From: Dehalococcoidia bacterium
GTDB lineage: Bacteria > Chloroflexota > Dehalococcoidia > Plut-88900
Direction of reading: 5' to 3'
Assembly: GCA_965207225.1 (NCBI GenBank)
Contig: CBDBLV010000004.1
Span: forward strand, 96,001 to 160,000
Length of the DNA stretch: 64,000 bases
The notes under the pieces: model-generated
Seen by the model: only the letters and a program-made list of their open reading frames with translations
The model's database searches: none
What the model was told of the DNA's origin: nothing
Program-made: the position numbers and the translations under genes
Shown: positions 48,998 to 58,857 of the stretch, piece by piece
Position numbering within the stretch: position 1 is the first letter of the stretch
Layout: every line of letters starts with the position of its first letter

Positions 48998-50575
48998 TTA
49001 GCGAGACTTTTCCATGTCGGCGAGGACCCGGCGGAGGATTTTGCCGGATGGACTCTTGGGGATTTCGTCGGTGAATTCGACCTCACGGATCTTCTTGAAG
49101 CCGGCGACGCGTTCAGCGACGAAGGCCATCACATCGTCGGCAGTGAGGGAAGAGGACTTGGCAACGACGTAGGCCTTGGGGAGCTCGCCGGCTTCTTCGT
49201 CGGGCTTGCCTACCACTGCAGCGTCGGCGACGTTAGGGTGTTCGAGGAGGAGGGCCTCCACCTCGGCGGGGGCGACCTGGAACCCCTTGTACTTTATGAG
49301 CTCCTTCTTGCGGTCGACGATGTAGACGTAGCCGTCGGGGTCCATGCGGGCCATGTCGCCGGTGTAGAGCCAGCCGTCCTTCAGGGTCTCAGCGGTAGCC
49401 TCGGGGTTGCGCCAGTACCCCTTCATCACCTGGGGGCCGCGGATGAGCAGTTCGCCGACTTCTCCGGGAGAGAGTTCTTTGCCGGCGTCTTCGGGGTCGA
49501 CGATTTTCTCATCTGTGTCGGAAATGGCGGGGCCGATGGAGCCCGTGCGCCGGAGGTCGGGTTCGACGAAGTCCATGTTGGTTACGGGAGAGGTCTCGGT
49601 GAGGCCGTAGCCCTGGACGGTCGGGACTCCGGTGAGTCTTTCGAAGCGAGACTGGAGCTCCTCTGATAGGGGCGCTGCGCCGGAGAGGCAGAGGCGCAGG
49701 GAGGAGAGATCATGGGACTCGATGCCCGGGACCTGGGCCACGCCGAGAACGACGGGCGGAACGGTGTATAGCATGGAGATGCGGTGTCGGGGGACGAGGT
49801 CTAGAAAGAGGTCCATGTCGAACCGGCCCATGTGTACCTGGGTGGCCCCTGCGGCAATGGCGGCGTTCATCAGGACGGTCATGCCGTAGCTGTGGAACAG
49901 GGGTAAATGGACGAGGAGAACGTCCTCCTCGGTCATGGCAGAAACCTCACCGGGGCGGTTAATGGTCTGCTCCAGGTTGCTGGTGAGGTTGAAGTGGGTG
50001 AGCATGACGCCTTTGGGGAGTCCTGTCGTGCCGCTGGAGGAGGGCAGGGCGGCGAGGTCCTCTCGCGGGTTAATAGTGACGGAAGGTGGTCGCTGAGCAT
50101 TGTCGGCGAGGAGTTGGTCGAAGTTGGGGGAGTCGGGGGCAGGGGGGCCGATGTTGATCACGGTGTCGAGGGCAGGGAGGTCGGGGCGGGCGGCTTCGAC
50201 AACGGAGAGATTACTCTGGTGGCATACGAGAATTCGGACACCGGAGTTGTCCATCTGGTGGGTGAGTTCTCGGGCGCGGTAGGCCGAGTTGGCTGGGGCC
50301 ACGGCGGCGCCAGTCTTGAGAATTCCGAAGTAAGCAATGACGAACTCGGCGCAGTTGGGAGCGAAGAGCCCGACCCGGTCACCCTTCTCCACCCCCAGCC
50401 CCGCCAGGGCAGTCGCGAACCTGTCACTCAGTTCGTCAAGCTGGGCGAAGGTGAAAGAACGGTTGCCGTCGATGACGGCGGTCTTGTCAGGGATACGGGA
50501 GGCGGTGCGCCGGAGGACATCGAAGAGAGGGTATGCCTCGTAGGGTGCGAGGGAGGGGCGGAGGGGGGTGTGCAT
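48998..50575 (-). CDS. AMP-binding acyl-CoA ligase (4-coumarate-CoA ligase-like)
   Basis: SSGTTGLPKG, QGYGLTE, GPQVMKGY, TGD, DRKKELIKYKG and GKILRR. Confidence 0.92.
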   Translation of the reverse strand: MHTPLRPSLAPYEAYPLFDVLRRTASRIPDKTAVIDGNRSFTFAQLDELSDRFATALAGLGVEKGDRVGLFAPNCAEFVIAYFGILKTGAAVAPANSAYRARELTHQMDNSGVRILVCHQSNLSVVEAARPDLPALDTVINIGPPAPDSPNFDQLLADNAQRPPSVTINPREDLAALPSSSGTTGLPKGVMLTHFNLTSNLEQTINRPGEVSAMTEEDVLLVHLPLFHSYGMTVLMNAAIAAGATQVHMGRFDMDLFLDLVPRHRISMLYTVPPVVLGVAQVPGIESHDLSSLRLCLSGAAPLSEELQSRFERLTGVPTVQGYGLTETSPVTNMDFVEPDLRRTGSIGPAISDTDEKIVDPEDAGKELSPGEVGELLIRGPQVMKGYWRNPEATAETLKDGWLYTGDMARMDPDGYVYIVDRKKELIKYKGFQVAPAEVEALLLEHPNVADAAVVGKPDEEAGELPKAYVVAKSSSLTADDVMAFVAERVAGFKKIREVEFTDEIPKSPSGKILRRVLADMEKSR

Positions 50576-50621
50576 GGTTGTCTCCTGTAGTTCATTAGCA
50601 GGCGGCAGCCATGATACAGGA

Positions 50622-51701
50622 TCAGCCGGAGGCCTGGTCCTTCAGACCGGAACCCGTAATCGGCACAAGGACAGTCTCGTCGCTCTCGATGGCGCCAGCC
50701 TCGATCAGCTTCGAGAGCCCTGCGAGAGCTGCTGCGGAAGTGGGTTCGCAGAAGAGGCCCTCAGTGCGGGCGAGCCGAGACTGCCAGGACGTGATTTCGG
50801 AGTCGGGGACGGAGAGGGCTTGACCACCACATTCTCGGAGGACACTTAGCACGTGCAGGAGACGCGGAGGGTCAGCGACGGAGATACCGCCTGCGATTGT
50901 GCGTTTGGTCGGGTCAGGGGCCCAAGGTTCACCTTTGAAGGCAGCAACTATGGGCATTACGGCATCGGCTTGAATGGCGTGGAGTTTGGGGAGGGCGTCG
51001 ATGCCTCCTCGGCGTTTGAGTTCGTGGAGGCCGATCCACGTGCCCAGAAACAGGGAGCCGTTGCCTACGGGCATTACTAAGTGGTCGGGGAGAGAGTCGG
51101 GGAAGTCGGCGGGTAGCTCGTGGGCGAAGGTCTTTGTGCCTTCCAGGAAGTAGGGGCTGAGGTTGTGGGAAGCGTAGACGAGGTCGTTCTCCTTGCAGAA
51201 GGCGAGGGCAGCATCGGCAGCGGCTTCCCGGGGGCCGGGGATGAGGTGGGTCTCGGCCTCGTAGATCTTGATCTGGTTTAACTTGGCTCGGGGGGCGGAG
51301 TCGGGGGCGAATATGTGGGCCCTTATACCGCACCGGGCCGAATAGGCTGCGACGGAAGCCCCAGCGTTGCCGGAGGAGTCCTCGACCATCTCGTGGACGC
51401 CGAAGTGTCGGGCGGAGGCGATCATGGCGGCCGTGCCGCGATCCTTAAATGAGCCGGTCGGGGAGACGAACTCCAGCTTGGCGTAAAGGGATGTCAGGCC
51501 GAGGGATTCGGCGATGGAGGGCAAGGGTACGGCGGGTGTACGACCTTCCCCCAGGGAGATGAGAGGGATGCCGAGAATAGGGTTTGCGTGTTGTGGGTAG
51601 GTGACGACCAGGGGGGCGCTGCAGTGGCTGCAGGAGAGGGTACGGATGTTTGGAGAGTGGTCTCGGCAGCAGGAGGTGCATTGGAGAGTATGGGAGTTCA
51701 T
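50622..51701 (-). CDS. thrC: Threonine synthase (PLP, N-terminal CxxC..CxxC)
   Basis: SLGEGRTP, PTGSFKDRG, SSGNAG, EPTSA and TGSGLK. Confidence 0.8.
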   Translation of the reverse strand: MNSHTLQCTSCCRDHSPNIRTLSCSHCSAPLVVTYPQHANPILGIPLISLGEGRTPAVPLPSIAESLGLTSLYAKLEFVSPTGSFKDRGTAAMIASARHFGVHEMVEDSSGNAGASVAAYSARCGIRAHIFAPDSAPRAKLNQIKIYEAETHLIPGPREAAADAALAFCKENDLVYASHNLSPYFLEGTKTFAHELPADFPDSLPDHLVMPVGNGSLFLGTWIGLHELKRRGGIDALPKLHAIQADAVMPIVAAFKGEPWAPDPTKRTIAGGISVADPPRLLHVLSVLRECGGQALSVPDSEITSWQSRLARTEGLFCEPTSAAALAGLSKLIEAGAIESDETVLVPITGSGLKDQASG

Positions 51702-51816
51702 GGTGGATGAATAGACCTGGGTGTCGGGTTTCGTATAGTATCCCATCCTGTCGGGGCGGAGGTGTAGGGCCCTCGCCCCGATTAAACTCACAGCATTCCA
51801 TCAGGGAGGACTCAAG

Positions 51817-52200
51817 ATGCCGAAGAAAGAGATCATCAACGTAGACATGAAAGGCGGCAATCCGAACCTTTCGCCGGGGGCGAGGTTTGGAGACCTGGTT
51901 TTCGTGGCGGGTCAGACGGGGACGCATCCCGACACCGGGAAGCTGGGGGAGGGTGTCGCGGAGCAGACCCGGTTCACCATCGAGCGGATCAAGCGGGTGC
52001 TGGAGGCTGCGGGTACAAACCTAGACAACGTGTTGTCGGTGAACTGCTGGCTTACGAAGCGGGAGGACCTGGCGGAGTTCAACGAGGAGTACGGCAAGCA
52101 ATTCGTGGAGAACAAGCCGCCTCGGGCGACGGTGGAGGTGATGTTGAACAGGCCCGACTTGCTGGTGGAGATCATGGTTACGGCCTGTATTCCCAGCTAG
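51817..52200 (+). CDS. RidA family protein
   Basis: VFVAGQ, EQTR, FNEEY, PPRATV and LVEI. Confidence 0.9.
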   Translation: MPKKEIINVDMKGGNPNLSPGARFGDLVFVAGQTGTHPDTGKLGEGVAEQTRFTIERIKRVLEAAGTNLDNVLSVNCWLTKREDLAEFNEEYGKQFVENKPPRATVEVMLNRPDLLVEIMVTACIPS

Positions 52201-52226
52201 GTCGGGGTACAGGACTGTCTCCCCCA

Positions 52227-52303
52227 GTTCGCCCTTCGACTTCGCTCAGGGTGAGCGGCCCCATCCCACGGGATGGATTCCGGCTCGGAGGTCGGAGTGA
52301 TGG
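52227..52303 (+). repeat. Composite REP-like element
   Basis: CCCTTCGACTTCGCTCAGGGTGAGCGG plus GGATGGATTCCGGCTCGGAGGTCGGAGTGA, the same layout as 6461-6538. Confidence 0.8.
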
Positions 52304-52305
52304 TG

Positions 52306-53649
52306 TTAGTTGGTTTCGGGGAAGAGGGGACCGCGGCCCAGTTCGGTGAGGACGCGCGACGCGGAATGGACGGCGGCATCCATTCCGGAACCTGCAGTGT
52401 AGTCACCGGCGAAGTGGATGTTGGCGGTCGGGGCCTGGATGTTGGGAACGTTAGGCAGGCGACCGACCAGCCACGGGCTGCCACCGTGCTCCCAGTGCTT
52501 CAGTGCACCGGTTATGACGCGGCCCCGGGTGTCGGGGAGGACTTCGTACATGGACTCCATCAGGGATTCCAGGGCCTCGCCGTCTGAAAGCTTCTGGAGG
52601 CGCTTGGACTCGACGTCGCCGGTGTAGACCCGCAGGAGCCCTTGCCCTGTGCGCTCCTTGACCTCCCTGGGGAAGGTGATGGTGGGGTTGGTGACGGAGA
52701 CCAGGGGACTTCTAACCGTGGGCACCCGCCATACGCCCTCGCCGAGGAAGTCCTCGGAGGGGCGGTCCAGGAGGAAACCGGCGCTGGTTATGGAGCCGTA
52801 GGTGGCGGCGGCGAGTGCTGTTCGCTTCCAGTCGGGAAGAGGGTCAACGATGTTGAGAGCCAGGGGCGCGGGGACGGCCATGACGCACTTCCCGGCCCGG
52901 ACCGTGTGGGTCTGGCCGCCCTGATTATAAGTGACGGTGACGCCATCTGCGGACTCTTCGACCCTCGACACCTCTGCCGAAGTCTTAATCCTATCGGAGA
53001 GGCGGTCCCAGAGGGCTCGGGCGATCTGCCAGGTGCCGCCATTGACGAAGTATTCCTTGGCTACGAAGTGTAGGAATGTGTTGATAGGGTGGTAGGCCGA
53101 TGACTCTCCGGCGTCGGTGGTGGTCGTGGCGAGGGCGACGGTGTCCCAGAGATCCCGGAGGTCACCGGGCTTGAGATTCAGGTATTGGGCGAGGGTCATG
53201 GAGTTAAGGTGGATGATCTTGGGGTCATTGATGTCGGGGAAGTCCTTGCGGAAGCCGCCGTACTTGCGCCTGAGGTTGAAGACGTCCCATCCGAGCTTGA
53301 TCTTGTCGGTGATAGAGATGGGAAGCTGCCACAAGAAGGACGGCTCGTTGGAAGCGGCGACAAGTTTTCCCTTCATGATTACGGGGAGTTTGGTCTTGCC
53401 GATGAGGCTGCGGTTAACGCCCAATTCGTTAGTGAGTGGAGCCACGAGGCTGTCATCCCCGTTCACGACCTGGGCGCCCATATTGTAGATGTACTCGCCC
53501 ATCTGCTTCGAAAGGGTGCGCCCGCCGCAGTAGTCCTCCCTTTCGAGGAGCAGGGTTTCTTGGTCCTGGAGTCGGTAGGCTACGGTGAGGCCGGCGAGGC
53601 CCCCGCCTACGATAACGGTGTCGAAGGTCTTGGGGGTGGTTGCGGGCAT
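52306..53649 (-). CDS. FAD-dependent amine oxidase/protoporphyrinogen oxidase-like oxidoreductase
   Basis: VGGGLAGL, E..CGGRT, GGTWQI, FAGDY and GMDAAVHSA. Confidence 0.85.
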   Translation of the reverse strand: MPATTPKTFDTVIVGGGLAGLTVAYRLQDQETLLLEREDYCGGRTLSKQMGEYIYNMGAQVVNGDDSLVAPLTNELGVNRSLIGKTKLPVIMKGKLVAASNEPSFLWQLPISITDKIKLGWDVFNLRRKYGGFRKDFPDINDPKIIHLNSMTLAQYLNLKPGDLRDLWDTVALATTTTDAGESSAYHPINTFLHFVAKEYFVNGGTWQIARALWDRLSDRIKTSAEVSRVEESADGVTVTYNQGGQTHTVRAGKCVMAVPAPLALNIVDPLPDWKRTALAAATYGSITSAGFLLDRPSEDFLGEGVWRVPTVRSPLVSVTNPTITFPREVKERTGQGLLRVYTGDVESKRLQKLSDGEALESLMESMYEVLPDTRGRVITGALKHWEHGGSPWLVGRLPNVPNIQAPTANIHFAGDYTAGSGMDAAVHSASRVLTELGRGPLFPETN

Positions 53650-53757
53650 GGCGAGCTCCAATGATGGATGTGGGAAGTCGGGGGTGGGGTCGGGTATATA
53701 ATAGCACCCCGCCTATCTAACCTTCGACCAAAGGAACACCGGAAGGATACCCGCAGT

Positions 53758-54750
53758 ATGCCCAGAACAAATTACGGGATAAGCCTGTCCAACCGCTCGG
53801 TGGTGACGGGGGACAAGACGGTGGAGGAGCTGGTGGGCATGGCGGAAGTGGCAGAGGAGTCGGGGTGTTTTGATGGGGTGTGGGTAGGAGACAATCTGCT
53901 GTCCAAGCCGAGGTTCGATTACCTCGTGCTCCTCTCAGCTATCGCCGCCCGAACGAACAGGGTGAAACTGGGCACCATTTGCATGGCGACTTTCCCGCTA
54001 CGCAACCCGGTCCAGCTAGCCATTCAGTGGGCCAGCCTGGACGTGCTGTCGAATGGTCGGACGGTCCTAGCTGTCTGAACTGGAGGTCCGGCCCGGTACG
54101 GGCCGCTGTTCGCCAAGGAGCTGGAAGTGATGGGAGTGGAGTCGAACGAGAGGGTCGGGAGGATGCTCGAGGGGATGCGGATACTCAGGCGGCTGTGGTC
54201 GGAAGAGAAGGTCACTCATGAAGGGCGGTTTTATAAATTCCAGGACCTCGACGCCCTGCCGAAGCCCGCCCAGGCCCGGATCCCGATCTGGCTGGCGGTT
54301 AACCCCAAGGGTGATGTAAAGCCGGAGTTGCTTGATCGGGTCCTGAAGCGGGTGGCGAAATACTCGGATGGGTGGCAGACGGATGCGATTACAGCGGAGG
54401 ACTTCCGGGAGAGGTTCGACCGCATCAAAGCGTATGCGGCGGAGATGGGTCGGGATGCGGACGCACTGGACTCGAGCCTGCACCTGATGGTCAACATCCA
54501 CGATGACCGGGACACGGCATATCGGCAGGCCCACGACTTCCTGGTCGGGTACTACGGTTCGGCGTTCATGAGGCCGGGCCTAATCGACCTCTGGGTTGCC
54601 TACGGCCGCCCCGAGAACGTGGCGGAGAAGATCCAGTCCTACGTGGACGCTGGGTGCACGACTCCCGTACTGAGGTTTGTCGGACCGGATATGACGGAGC
54701 AGGTGGGCCGGTACGTCGAAGAGGTGGCGCCGCTGTTGGATAAGAGATGA
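53758..54750 (+). CDS. LLM-class oxidoreductase with an in-frame TGA, probably selenocysteine U107
   Basis: The two ORF-track pieces (to 54078 and from 54127) share one frame. Read-through gives a 330-aa LLM barrel (VWVGDN, RVKLGT, LDVLSNGRTVLAV-U-TG, PKPAQ..PIW, DGW). A SECIS-like hairpin follows the TGA. Confidence 0.8.
54089..54105 (+). promoter_or_regulatory. Putative bacterial SECIS hairpin
   Basis: CGGCCCG-GTA-CGGGCCG, a perfect stem starting 10 nt after the TGA, with a G/GU-initiated loop 16-17 nt from the TGA. Confidence 0.7.
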
Positions 54751-55898
54751 GGATCTTGGTCCTCGGGTGCGGGTTCCACGGACGGGGGATCGCCTACCAG
54801 ATAGCAGCAGAAGGCGAGGATGTGGAGCTGGTGGCGGCGGACAAGGATGGGGAACGGGCGCGTCGGGTGGCGGAGAGGACGGGCGGGGAGTGGATGGAAT
54901 TGGATGTTAAGGATGAGTCGGGGCTGAGGGAGGCTTTGAACGGGGTAGATACGGTATTCAACGCCACGGGGCCCTACCATCTGCTGGGTTTGAAGGTGGT
55001 TGATGCGGCAATTGTAACTAACACTCATTATGTAGACATGGCCGATGACCATGAAATGACCGAGGAGCTGTTTTTCAACCCGGCGTGGGACCGGCGAGCG
55101 CGGGAGGCGGATGTCGCGGTGCTGTCGGGGTGCGGGATTATGCCGGGGCTCAGCGGGGTGCTAGCCAGGCACGGATACGACGAAATGGACGAGCCACGAA
55201 AGATAAACATCTGGTTTACGTGGAATTATTCGCTGAATTATCCTTCCGCTATACATCACTTCCTGAGGATCAACAACGGGTTGGCACCGCAGTTTATGAA
55301 TAGTGGTTATGTTAAGCCTGGGGCTTTCGCAAACAGAGAAACTATAGACTTTTTGCTGCCGGTCGGGGGTAAGGAGGTGTACTATACGGGCGTGCCGGAC
55401 CCGGTGAGTATTTCGCAGTCGCTGCCGGGGCTAAAAGAGGTCACGGCAAGTGGGGGACTGCACCAGCCCGAGGGCAACGACTTCATGGAGTCGATGGTCA
55501 GGTGGGGGTTCACCTCGTATGAGAAGGTCCCGGGTTTTGACCGGAGTCCGATGGAATACCTGATGGCCTATCTAAAGTCTGGCGAGGGAAAGCAATACTT
55601 CGACATCGAGCCTCTGGGCCAGCCTATGGCGGTGCGGGTTAGAGTAGATGGGATGAATGAAGGAGAGCCATGTCGTCGGGTGTTCGAGGTGCAGGACTAT
55701 TCGAGGAGGGGCACCACTTCGGTGGCGGCGCTGGCGACCTTGATGGTGGCGTCGGAAGAGATTCAGAGGAGAGGGGTGGGGAGTCCGGAGGGGTGGCTGG
55801 ATGCGGAGTCGTTCCTAAGGCGGATGGACCGGGAGCCGGGAGTGGATCTGTTTGAGCTGGTGGGGGGTGGGGAGGCTAAGGCCTTGTTTGAAAGGTAA
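54747..55898 (+). CDS. Saccharopine dehydrogenase-family NAD(P)-binding oxidoreductase
   Basis: LGCGFHG, NATGPY, HYVD and GCGIMPGLS. ATGA overlap with the LLM gene. Confidence 0.85.
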   Translation: MRILVLGCGFHGRGIAYQIAAEGEDVELVAADKDGERARRVAERTGGEWMELDVKDESGLREALNGVDTVFNATGPYHLLGLKVVDAAIVTNTHYVDMADDHEMTEELFFNPAWDRRAREADVAVLSGCGIMPGLSGVLARHGYDEMDEPRKINIWFTWNYSLNYPSAIHHFLRINNGLAPQFMNSGYVKPGAFANRETIDFLLPVGGKEVYYTGVPDPVSISQSLPGLKEVTASGGLHQPEGNDFMESMVRWGFTSYEKVPGFDRSPMEYLMAYLKSGEGKQYFDIEPLGQPMAVRVRVDGMNEGEPCRRVFEVQDYSRRGTTSVAALATLMVASEEIQRRGVGSPEGWLDAESFLRRMDREPGVDLFELVGGGEAKALFER

Positions 55899-55960
55899 GG
55901 GTGAAATTCCCCCTCATCCCAACCCTTTCTCATCGAAGGAAAGGGAATTAAGCGGAGGCA

Positions 55961-56872
55961 ATGATGGGCAATTACGATGACTTTACGGCGTATTTTAACG
56001 GGGAGTGGGTCCCGTATAGCGAGGTTAGGTTCCCGCCCCACGATCGGGGTTTTGCGGTTGCGGACGTTGTCTTCGACCAAGGGCGCACTTTCGGAGGGGT
56101 TCCGTTCCGGTTGGAAGACCATATCAATCGGCTATACAGGTCGCTGAAGTATGTGCGGGTAGATCCCGGGCTCACTGAGGACGAGATGGTGGAGGTGTGT
56201 CGGGAGGGGGTAGCGAGAAACGACCACCGCCGGGACTCTGTCGGAGACTTTGCCATCAATCCGATCATCACCAGGGGAACATCGGTGAGTGGGCCACCTA
56301 GTGTTGCGGTGATAATCAAGCCTATAGATTTCAAGGATTTTGCGAGGTTCTACGTGGACGGCGCCCACGCCATTGTTACCAAGGTGCGCAGCTACTCCAG
56401 CGCCATGCTGGATGCAAAGGTAAAGCACCACAGCCGGATGAACTTCGTACTGGCGGAGCTCGAGGCCCGGGACGTAGACCCCGAGGGCTTGCCCCTTCTC
56501 ATGGACATGGAAGGGAACGTCACCGAGGGGCTCGGATACAACGTTTTTATCGTTACGGACGGAGTGCTTAGGACGCCCAAGGACGACAACATCCTGCAGG
56601 GCGTATCCCGACAGACCGTGTTCGATCTGGCCGAGGGTCTCGGGATTCCGGCCTCGGAGGAGGACCTGCAGCCATACGACCTTTACACGGCGGACGAGGT
56701 GTTTTTCAGCAGGACGAGTCCACGAATCGTGCCAGTGGCAAAGGTAGACACCCGGCCGATCGGGAGCGAGATACCGGGTCCAATCACGCAACAGTTGCTG
56801 GCGGCGCACAGCGAGCTTGTAGGTGTGGATATTGTCGGGCAGAGTCTGCATTATGCGGGGGTCGAGGGGTGA
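55961..56872 (+). CDS. Aminotransferase class IV
   Basis: HDRGF..D.VFD, DHINRL, KHHSR, EGLGYN, LQGVSR and ADEVF. Confidence 0.9.
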   Translation: MMGNYDDFTAYFNGEWVPYSEVRFPPHDRGFAVADVVFDQGRTFGGVPFRLEDHINRLYRSLKYVRVDPGLTEDEMVEVCREGVARNDHRRDSVGDFAINPIITRGTSVSGPPSVAVIIKPIDFKDFARFYVDGAHAIVTKVRSYSSAMLDAKVKHHSRMNFVLAELEARDVDPEGLPLLMDMEGNVTEGLGYNVFIVTDGVLRTPKDDNILQGVSRQTVFDLAEGLGIPASEEDLQPYDLYTADEVFFSRTSPRIVPVAKVDTRPIGSEIPGPITQQLLAAHSELVGVDIVGQSLHYAGVEG

Positions 56873-56914
56873 GCGGGTTGATTTGCTAAGGGACCTGCCA
56901 TCAGGAGGAAAACG

Positions 56915-57679
56915 ATGGCTGACAGCATGAATGGTAGGGTTGCGCTGGTCACGGGCGGGGGATCCGGGATTGGGAGGGCGACATCGCTAGTGTTTGCAAG
57001 GGAAGGGGCGAAGGTCGTGGTGGTAGACCTTGCGGAAGGGCCCGTGCAGGCAACTGTAGACCTAATCGCGGCTGGGGGTGGGGAGGCGTCGGGGGTGACG
57101 GCGGACGTGTCGAATACTGAAGACGTGAAGCGTATGGTTGCGGAAACGGTGTCGAGGTTCGGGCGGTTGGATGCTGCGTTTAACAATGCAGGCATCCATA
57201 CCGGCGTCCGAATCCCGTTCCACGACTATCCGGAAGACGAGTGGGACAGAGTAATCGACGTGAACCTAAAGGGCGTGTGGCTGTGCATCAAGTATGAGGC
57301 GCCGGTGATGTTAGAGCAGGGTGGCGGGACAATTGTTAACACAGCCTCGGTGGCGGGGCTGGTAGCGGGGCAGGGGACTTCGGCATACACGGCGAGCAAG
57401 CATGGGGTTGCGGGGCTGACCAAGAGTGCAGCCATGGACTACGCCAGACAAGGTATCCGGGTGAACGCGGTGGCCCCAGGGGAGATAACCACCCCAATGA
57501 TGGACCTGATAATCAGGTCTAACAACTTCTCGAAGGCCCAGAAGGACGAGGAGCAGCCCATCGGCAGGATGGGCAAACCCGAAGAAATCGCGGAGGTGGT
57601 GGTCTGGCTGTGCACCGACGCTGCGTCCTACGTCACGGGCCACGTGTTCCCGGTGGACGGCGGATACATGGCAACCTAG
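56915..57679 (+). CDS. SDR family oxidoreductase
   Basis: TGGGSGIG, NNAG, YTASKHG and VDGG. Confidence 0.93.
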   Translation: MADSMNGRVALVTGGGSGIGRATSLVFAREGAKVVVVDLAEGPVQATVDLIAAGGGEASGVTADVSNTEDVKRMVAETVSRFGRLDAAFNNAGIHTGVRIPFHDYPEDEWDRVIDVNLKGVWLCIKYEAPVMLEQGGGTIVNTASVAGLVAGQGTSAYTASKHGVAGLTKSAAMDYARQGIRVNAVAPGEITTPMMDLIIRSNNFSKAQKDEEQPIGRMGKPEEIAEVVVWLCTDAASYVTGHVFPVDGGYMAT

Positions 57680-57714
57680 AGAAGACTAATTGTAGGAAAA
57701 CAGAGGCCCGATAG

Positions 57715-58857
57715 ATGATCAAGCATTTCTCTTCGCTGTACGTGGGCCATATCGAACTGGAGAACGTCGGCGCGAATGGCACATCGCCCGAGGACCGGCT
57801 GTACCCCAACGAGCGGCTCACGGAGTGTTTCGGGATGGCCGAGGCTATAGCCAAGCAGATGGACTCCCAGGGCTACTACGCGCTGTGGATGGCCGAACAC
57901 CATTTCCAGAGGGAGGGATACGAGTGCATACCCAACCTCCTGATGCTCAGCACGTACCTTTCAACGCAAACGAAACGGCTAAAGTTTGGGTGTGCATTCA
58001 ACATCGTGCCGATGTGGCATCCGTTGCGGCTGGCCGAAGACTTCGCGATGGCGGATATTTTGTCGGGGGGTAGGGTGATATTCGGGGTTGGTCGGGGCTA
58101 CCACACCCGAGAGGTCGAGACTTTCGGGTCGCCAATGCAGGACAATGACGCCAACAAAGAGCTGTTCATGGAGCAAATGGAGATAATCTTCAAGGCGTTC
58201 AACGAGGACTCATTCACCTACAGGGGCAAACACTACAACCTCCCGGCCCAGGTGCCTTACAGGGGCTACGATTTGAAGGACATTACACTGGTCCCGAGGC
58301 CCCTCCACAGACCCGTTGATGTTTGGCAGCCAATAGCAAGCCGACGCACGCTCAGATACATAGCCCAGACGGGAATAAAGGGTGTGGTACATGGGACGGG
58401 AGAGAGGCTGGTAGACGATGTGTTTCGCGAATACCAGGAGGCGGCGGGCGAGGCGGGTCGGGAGCTGGGGTTGGGCGAGGACCTGGCCCTAGGGTTGTTT
58501 TTCTACATAGATGAAAACCAGCCAAAGGCAATGGAGCGGGCCAGGCTATTTCACGACGAGCGGTACAAGTGGTTCGCTCCCTTCGGGCTGGTGCGGTATA
58601 CGGATGCCGAGGGTCGGCCGTGGGGTACGCCGGGCGCACCCAGCCGGGCCCCGACGCTGGAGGATGGCGTAGACCAAAAAGTCTGGCTTTGCGGGGACTC
58701 GAAATACGTTACTGAGGTGCTGAAAGAGTTCGAGGCCAAGTATCCGGGGCTGGAACATGTGATACTGCACTGGCCCGAGGGAATGTCGCTGGCGGAATAC
58801 TCGGAGCAGCTGACACGGTTCCATGAAGAAGTCATGCCGGTTTTCGGGGCAGGGTGA
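57715..58857 (+). CDS. LLM-class flavin-dependent oxidoreductase
   Basis: WMAEHHFQREG, HPLRLAED, GRVIFGVGRG and EEVMP. Confidence 0.93.
   Translation: MIKHFSSLYVGHIELENVGANGTSPEDRLYPNERLTECFGMAEAIAKQMDSQGYYALWMAEHHFQREGYECIPNLLMLSTYLSTQTKRLKFGCAFNIVPMWHPLRLAEDFAMADILSGGRVIFGVGRGYHTREVETFGSPMQDNDANKELFMEQMEIIFKAFNEDSFTYRGKHYNLPAQVPYRGYDLKDITLVPRPLHRPVDVWQPIASRRTLRYIAQTGIKGVVHGTGERLVDDVFREYQEAAGEAGRELGLGEDLALGLFFYIDENQPKAMERARLFHDERYKWFAPFGLVRYTDAEGRPWGTPGAPSRAPTLEDGVDQKVWLCGDSKYVTEVLKEFEAKYPGLEHVILHWPEGMSLAEYSEQLTRFHEEVMPVFGAG

Follow-up and report, generated by a model that had tools for sequence, protein, structure and literature searches.

A gene in a 64,000-nucleotide stretch of genomic DNA from a Dehalococcoidia bacterium (GenBank assembly GCA_965207225.1, contig CBDBLV010000004.1, positions 96,001 to 160,000; hereafter the window) appears to encode a selenocysteine (Sec)-containing oxidoreductase of the luciferase-like (LLM) class. 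The reading frame of this gene is interrupted at codon 107 by a UGA triplet, and comparison of the gene with its relatives leads us to conclude, with a probability of roughly 0.9, that this UGA is decoded as Sec and that the product is a genuine bacterial selenoprotein. The observations that directly support this conclusion are the conservation of the TGA, its position at a column occupied by Cys in homologs, purifying selection both across and after the TGA, a constrained hairpin downstream of it, and the presence of the Sec machinery in the same genome.

The UGA at codon 107, which falls between the peptides GRTVLAV and TGGPARYG, is the sole internal stop of the frame, and there is no frameshift (Table 1). 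When it is read through, the product matches Pfam family PF00296 with 169.7 bits (threshold 27.9; E = 1.3e-49; residues 10-266). Homologs of this product are 328-350 amino acids (aa) long, and their alignment to it starts at residues 1-4. The gene's own stop codon overlaps the ATG of the next open reading frame (ORF; start at 54747) as ATGA. Re-reading of the sequence thus upheld the preliminary description of this DNA, in which a single in-frame TGA in an otherwise intact 330-aa LLM ORF and its ATGA coupling had been reported. That description had also anticipated that gene callers would split the gene, and this is borne out by two database fragments from NCBI-derived sources, a 112-aa N-terminal piece (P0122) and a 206-aa C-terminal piece (P0003). 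Since TGA terminates the LLM gene itself, it is an ordinary stop codon in this host as well. Reassignment of TGA in the genetic code was considered and rejected, as TGA terminates both the LLM gene and the next ORFs.

The interrupted form of the gene is shared by a whole genus. Each of the eight other genomes of the genus carries an ortholog with exactly one TGA (8 of 8; 78-97% aa identity), and the TGA stands at the identical column in all nine separately assembled genomes when our own is included. Among 401 genomes of the class, these nine were the only ones to match a codon pattern with TGA at this column, and the same pattern found no match in a narrow sample of the phylum, 317 further genomes with completeness of at least 99 (318 including our own). 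One metagenome scan yielded two contigs, L081 and L082. The latter represents a close relative whose gene is cut by the contig end, and the former is AT-richer and holds a complete gene that is 63.6% identical; both have the TGA at the same column (in L081 between SILVV and NGGSALDGPQF). When the 106 N-terminal residues served as the query, 20 of the 120 short protein clusters listed (176 passed the E-value threshold) stopped exactly at residue 106. Because the identity of clusters ending at this residue runs from 97% down to 63%, the form with a stop at codon 107 is, judging by these sequences, distributed more widely than the genus.

Logan contigs from four runs in four studies also span the TGA, and no other letter appears there among the 40 differences listed (85 more are unlisted). 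One of these four contigs matches the window exactly and could be its source DNA, so that it offers no independent support. An assembly error and a TGA confined to a single strain were both concerns at the outset. The occurrence of the same TGA in nine of nine genomes of the genus, in L081 and L082, and in contigs of four runs dispels both. Parts of the LLM gene are also contained in sequencing runs labelled sponge, coral or marine metagenome, in small shares from which no habitat is inferred. A different kind of interruption occurs in another family of the class, where a 44%-identical Cys-form homolog (L034; G058:C17:229-1185) has a TGA in place of the invariant Trp42, between WDSV and VGD. 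This looks like a nonsense mutation or base error and not like a Sec site.

The residue replaced by the TGA is Cys wherever the subfamily could be aligned. A first protein search gave 3,691 relatives, of which 120 were listed; the 120th is the fragment P0003, and the other 119 are full-length homologs (58-64% identity) that all have Cys at this column, within the motif RTIL[AS]VCNGG. Similarly, TGC or TGT occupies the column at every one of 28 loci that are more distant (39-52% identity) and come from Binatia, Thermodesulfobacteriota, Acidobacteriota and Dehalococcoidia paralogs, and Cys is also present in L089, the sole close Cys form found in the class. Homologs at no more than 35% identity carry Gly (6 of 7) or a gap, and methylenetetrahydromethanopterin reductase (Mer) also carries Gly. 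Because these remote proteins do not have the Cys, its presence at the residue-107 column is, on the alignments, what defines the subfamily. The preliminary description had named Trp, Gly or Arg at this column as signs against Sec; Gly was seen only in the remote LLMs and in Mer. A FastTree phylogeny of 135 rows (9 with TGA, 119 with Cys and 7 outgroups) placed the nine TGA rows in one clade (Shimodaira-Hasegawa-like support 99) nested among the Cys rows, an arrangement for which one change suffices.

Selection on the protein sequence continues past the TGA. We determined the ratio of nonsynonymous to synonymous divergence (dN/dS) by the Nei-Gojobori method on five ortholog pairs with dS values of 0.7-1.6. 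The ratio is 0.08-0.14 upstream of the TGA, 0.12-0.27 for codons 108-124, and 0.13-0.18 for codons 125-328, the last value being about equal to that of the upstream part. The 17 codons that separate the TGA from the next Met are in frame and have no indels in the eight orthologs and L081, and they retain residues that are invariant in Cys forms, namely G109, G115, P116 and E121.

The host genome (G000; 4.03 Mb, five contigs) is equipped for Sec insertion, as the preliminary description had led us to expect. Matches over the cut-off were obtained for selB (326.6 bits), selA (556.2 bits), selD (387.4 bits) and a tRNA-Sec with the anticodon TCA (UCA; 66.4 bits). Within the taxonomic family, selA was found in all 12 genomes. 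Furthermore, at least nine other genes of the host have an in-frame TGA at a redox motif (Table 1). These include selD itself, with one TGA, six AhpC/TSA-family genes with one TGA each, a Rdx/SelW-like gene (CxxU) and an ArsC/Grx-like gene (UxxC). Searches of the genome for formate dehydrogenase (TIGR01553) and CMD/AhpD (PF02627) gave no match containing a TGA. A rich selenoproteome is to be expected in Dehalococcoidia, because the BSepDB paper lists metagenome-assembled genomes (MAGs) of this class with 46-49 selenoprotein genes. The host also encodes a Cys-type LLM paralog (C5:295687-296655; 42% identical) that has both Cys75 and Cys107, and some 390 nt after it lies a peroxiredoxin (Prx)-like gene (C5:297044-297406) with an in-frame TGA (W-U-PYC). 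This adjacency may link the LLM subfamily to thiol/selenol peroxidase chemistry.

A candidate Sec insertion sequence (SECIS) follows the UGA. The perfect 7-bp hairpin noted in the preliminary description is present, with its stem starting 10 nt and its loop 17 nt after the UGA; the distance rule of bSECISearch is 16-37 nt. All of its nucleotides are invariant across the genus, which answers the concern, named in the preliminary description, that no conserved hairpin might exist, and in the ungapped alignment of eight orthologs its 17 nt form the longest nucleotide-invariant run of the LLM gene. Degenerate codons for invariant amino acids are identical in the eight orthologs at 5 of 5 sites inside the hairpin, versus 58 of 225 gene-wide. 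A second invariant run of 16 nt in the same orthologs (GCCTGCACCTGATGGT, window 54475-54490, codons 240-245) comprises five consecutive identical codons, falls only slightly short of the hairpin in length and shows no obvious structure.

A counterpart of this hairpin lies in selD. The Sec codon of that gene, which was identified purely by homology, precedes GGACCUG-GUG-CAGGUCC, a hairpin of the same design. At the nine other TGA sites that were compared (those of selD, the six Prx genes, the Rdx/SelW-like gene and the ArsC/Grx-like gene), the best simple hairpins have UGA-to-loop distances of 12-27 nt, a range that includes the 17 nt of the LLM gene. They differ in shape, and most of their loops contain GU. 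With an energy of -12.7 kcal/mol, the LLM hairpin is the lowest of the ten examined. Cys-form homologs, by comparison, have no hairpin at this place (distant loci and L089 examined). A genome-wide scan for the design, defined as a GUN loop of 3 nt on at least seven Watson-Crick pairs, located 10-33 nt after the triplet, found it behind only 27 of 111,681 TGA triplets (0.024%), a frequency similar to that for other triplets (0.008-0.025%). The design is thus rare in this genome, and its occurrence after UGA-107 is taken to be more than chance.

In most respects examined, the LLM gene therefore has the form of bacterial selenoproteins in which Sec replaces Cys in a redox enzyme, such as the SelD, Prx, Grx, SelW-like and ArsC-like proteins of the host, and this supports the Cys-to-Sec reading given in the preliminary description: the UGA is at the Cys column of homologs, a stem-loop with a GU apical loop begins about 10 nt downstream, and selA, selB, selC and selD are present. 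It differs from them in its host family, LLM/PF00296, and also in having neither CxxU nor UxxC; the proposed Sec occurs by itself, within V-U-T/N-G-G, where a strand of the barrel ends.

Several findings, most of them concerning the hairpin, weigh against decoding of UGA-107 as Sec. In L081 the apical G-C pair is changed to U/U and the closing C-G pair to C/U, which leaves a 5-bp stem with a 5-nt loop (GGCCC-UGGAU-GGGCC), so the shape is only loosely conserved. No compensatory base-pair changes were seen, as the stem is invariant in the nine orthologs and the two pairs lost in L081 are uncompensated. The invariance itself could be due in part to the conserved codons for Gly115-Pro116. The examples of GU loops from the genome scan had been selected for GU, leaving selD and the homology-found Prx genes as the independent comparisons, and the hairpins of these Prx genes are more varied and in several cases less regular than that of the LLM gene. 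Folding of the 61-nt region gave z = 0.72 when compared with shuffled sequences, 153 of 200 shuffles being as good. Because GC-rich sequence folds anyway, this result was dropped as a test and the design-specific genome count was used instead. An Rfam scan of positions 53950-54250 found no SECIS family and only a chance miRNA match (E = 2.4); bacterial SECIS elements are poorly covered in Rfam, and the absence of a match there is uninformative. Lastly, the ortholog in genome G006 (L032; G006:C1:2140239-2141212) combines the conserved TGA with a 1-nt deletion in a G-run near codon 235. This run has four G where L030 has five, and the match is broken into two frames, which may reflect either a homopolymer artefact of long reads or a true frameshift.

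Three other accounts of the UGA were weighed. The one that fares best, although we consider it improbable, is that a near-cognate tRNA (Trp, Cys or Arg) suppresses the UGA to some degree in a selenium-independent manner, perhaps with stimulation by the hairpin, and yields a full-length enzyme that has no Sec. In other systems, read-through can be promoted by a hairpin located downstream, and the comparative data reveal continued translation only, not the identity of the inserted residue. Suppression of this kind is, however, difficult to reconcile with an organism that has a complete Sec system and a set of other TGA-bearing selenoprotein genes, with an invariant Cys in the relatives, which is the classic Sec/Cys signature, and with a hairpin that shares its spacing and GU loop with the selD SECIS. 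Moreover, a TGC codon would provide Cys far more efficiently, yet TGA has been kept through a dS of about 1, which argues that Sec itself has been selected.

Less probable still is that the UGA is a true stop and that two separate products, an N-terminal one of 106 residues and a C-terminal one of some 206 that starts at Met125, assemble into the barrel. Public annotation reads the gene in this manner, since gene callers yield just such pieces, and an in-frame ATG is available 17 codons past the TGA (Met125, ATG 54130; the ORF listing starts one codon earlier, at GTG 54127). Under this arrangement codons 108-124 would not be translated. They nevertheless remain in frame, are under the constraint described above and keep residues that are invariant in Cys forms. 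A split gene also leaves both the constraint on the hairpin and its resemblance to the selD design unexplained, and the stop would have to fall exactly on an invariant Cys column. Purifying selection and maintenance of the frame past the TGA therefore strongly disfavour a split gene, and they exclude a pseudogene. A nonsense mutation or assembly artefact in a Cys-type LLM, to which the single-base change from TGC or TGT to TGA, the origin of the genomes from metagenomes (some from long reads), the homopolymer indel in G006 and the lesion-like or erroneous TGA at Trp42 in G058 might be taken to point, is effectively refuted by the TGA common to nine genomes, two metagenome contigs and contigs of four runs and by an intact ORF whose dN/dS behind the stop is about 0.14, measured where synonymous divergence is close to saturation.

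If UGA-107 is decoded as Sec, expression of the LLM gene would follow the course for which E. coli fdhF is the textbook case, namely UGA decoding through a 3′ SECIS hairpin. SelB carrying Sec-tRNA(Sec) with the anticodon UCA would bind the mRNA hairpin and deliver Sec to a ribosome stalled at the UGA, 10 nt 5′ of the stem. Translation would then resume and proceed to the true stop at 54748, giving one 330-residue LLM oxidoreductase with a triosephosphate isomerase (TIM) barrel, dependent on a flavin or on F420, in which Sec takes the place of the Cys that is invariant in the subfamily. Selenium incorporation, SelB binding, and the catalytic role, cofactor and substrate of the protein are features that we infer.

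The predicted structure locates the proposed Sec. An AlphaFold2 (AF2) model of the protein is a TIM barrel (predicted local distance difference test score, pLDDT, 80.9; predicted template modelling score, pTM, 0.84) with strands E7-10, E40-43, E70-73 and E102-107. Residue 107 ends beta-4, in agreement with the location assigned to it before modelling. Foldseek matched the model to LLM structures at probability 1.00 with template modelling (TM) scores of 0.70-0.76, the top match being a homodimeric luciferase. In LLM structures, the flavin or deazaflavin site is bordered by beta-3 and beta-4 at their C-terminal ends. Sec107 would thus be located at the C-terminal end of beta-4, on the barrel face that holds the isoalloxazine or deazaflavin ring, and because of this location we propose that it most probably takes part in catalysis, as a redox or nucleophilic residue that may pair with Cys75. 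The latter residue lies just after beta-3. Cys75 and Cys107 are jointly invariant in 28 of 28 subfamily loci, whereas remote LLMs do not have the Cys75 plus Cys/Sec107 signature, Cys75 occurring in 1 of 7 remote homologs. In the host genome, where LLM paralogs are numerous, only 2 of 54 LLM tblastn matches have the pair.

A more specific proposal, which we advance tentatively and which may well not hold, is that Sec107 and Cys75, positioned where the adjacent strands beta-4 and beta-3 end, together make up a selenenylsulfide/selenol-thiol redox centre immediately next to the flavin or F420. In that case, the subfamily would act as a Cys-Cys/Sec reductase linked to a (deaza)flavin, with a logic comparable to that of thioredoxin reductase but a TIM barrel as its scaffold. 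To our knowledge, no member of the luciferase-like superfamily is known to carry out such chemistry.

F420-type LLMs (Mer, FGD1/FGD2 and Adf) are the nearest curated families by sequence, yet all are below the cut-off. FGD2, FGD1 and Mer resemble the model at TM 0.74-0.76, and the Mer structure 8qpm matches in sequence at E = 1.1e-19, its Gly at the Sec column setting it apart. Among the best 25 of 31 matched families of NCBIfam release 20, none exceeded its curated cut-off (TIGR03619, 136.4 versus 166.9; TIGR03560, 109.3 versus 231.4; Mer, 106 versus 276), and none is a selenoprotein-specific LLM model. Genes for F420 synthesis are present over the cut-off in the host (cofD, 330 bits; cofH, 527 bits), which permits but does not prove use of F420 by the LLM protein.

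LuxA has the same fold. The preliminary description equated the TGA position with the reactive Cys106 of Vibrio LuxA, and in V. harveyi LuxA this Cys would stand at the Sec column. In the LuxA-family chain 8cbb, the homodimeric luciferase that was the top Foldseek match, the Sec column aligns with the x of G-I-x-R-G at the end of beta-4; this chain, the sole one of the LuxA family that was aligned, has Gly there. The luciferase alpha model NF052254 scores 42.2 bits against a cut-off of 600, and no lux genes were found in the annotated neighbourhood of the LLM gene.

The ORF coupled to the LLM gene encodes a saccharopine-dehydrogenase-like protein. It is a conserved partner within the proposed Sec clade, as it also follows the LLM gene in L081 (60% identity) and, at 84-93% identity, in L044, L045 and L047. 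It was not seen beside the Cys forms examined. The surrounding region (window 48998-58857) encodes an AMP-binding ligase, a threonine-synthase-like pyridoxal phosphate (PLP) enzyme, RidA, a flavin amine oxidase (divergent from the LLM gene), the saccharopine-dehydrogenase-like protein, a class IV aminotransferase, a short-chain dehydrogenase/reductase (SDR) and a second LLM (57715-58857). Its gene order is conserved in L044, L045 and L047. These neighbours hint at amine or amino-acid metabolism.

Table 1. Features of the LLM gene and its surroundings, other host genes with an in-frame TGA, and related protein clusters.
Feature	Sequence	Position	Strand	Remarks
Candidate ribosome-binding site GGAAGGA	Window	53741-53747	+	10 nt before LLM ATG; inferred from sequence only
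LLM-class oxidoreductase coding sequence	Window	53758-54750	+	330 codons, read through one UGA; own stop TGA 54748-54750
Proposed Sec codon, in-frame UGA	Window	54076-54078	+	Residue 107, last of beta-strand 4 (AF2 model)
SECIS-like hairpin CGGCCCG-GUA-CGGGCCG	Window	54089-54105	+	7-bp perfect stem, 3-nt loop
Saccharopine-dehydrogenase-like NAD(P)-binding protein	Window	54747-55898	+	Pfam PF03435, E = 2.2e-13; ATGA-coupled to LLM
TGA gene	G000	C5:649975-650898	-	
TGA gene	G000	C4:603369-603752	+	
TGA gene	G000	C5:682780-683157	-	
TGA gene	G000	C5:1170187-1170552	-	
TGA gene	G000	C5:1169624-1169989	-	
TGA gene	G000	C5:297044-297406	+	
TGA gene	G000	C5:1690552-1690905	+	
TGA gene	G000	C5:211048-211323	+	
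TGA gene	G000	C5:75337-75690	+	
Truncated clusters P0133-P0159				63-71% identity

New bacterial selenoprotein families are reported regularly, and decoding of the LLM gene would be of the ordinary bacterial kind. Its novelty would lie in the protein family and not in the mechanism. The preliminary description placed LLMs outside the classic selenoprotein families, and we found nothing to contradict it in the surveys searched. Table 1 of a 2026 review of prokaryotic selenoprotein families, in the part of that article that was accessible, has no luciferase, LLM, monooxygenase, flavin or PF00296 entry. The accessible portions of PMC13188914, PMC13326102, PMC12013277, PMC2398784, PMC9312934 and PMC5029168, which comprise this review and five other surveys, likewise contain no LLM selenoprotein, although their supplements or the BSepDB website could list one. 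Full-text searches combining selenoprotein or selenoproteome with luciferase-like, LLM class or methylenetetrahydromethanopterin reductase returned nothing relevant; a groundwater-MAG study could list an LLM. The split of the gene in public gene calls explains why annotation pipelines and selenoprotein catalogues have missed it.

Should this reading of UGA-107 be correct, the luciferase-like (flavin/F420 TIM-barrel) superfamily, which is among the largest oxidoreductase families, would join the enzymes that use Sec. The Cys form of the subfamily occurs widely in metagenomes from marine and sediment sources. A Sec site is a marker of a redox-active or nucleophilic residue, and the one proposed here would therefore provide a starting hypothesis for the chemistry of the group: it flags Cys/Sec107, probably together with Cys75, as a likely catalytic residue of a large uncharacterised LLM subfamily.

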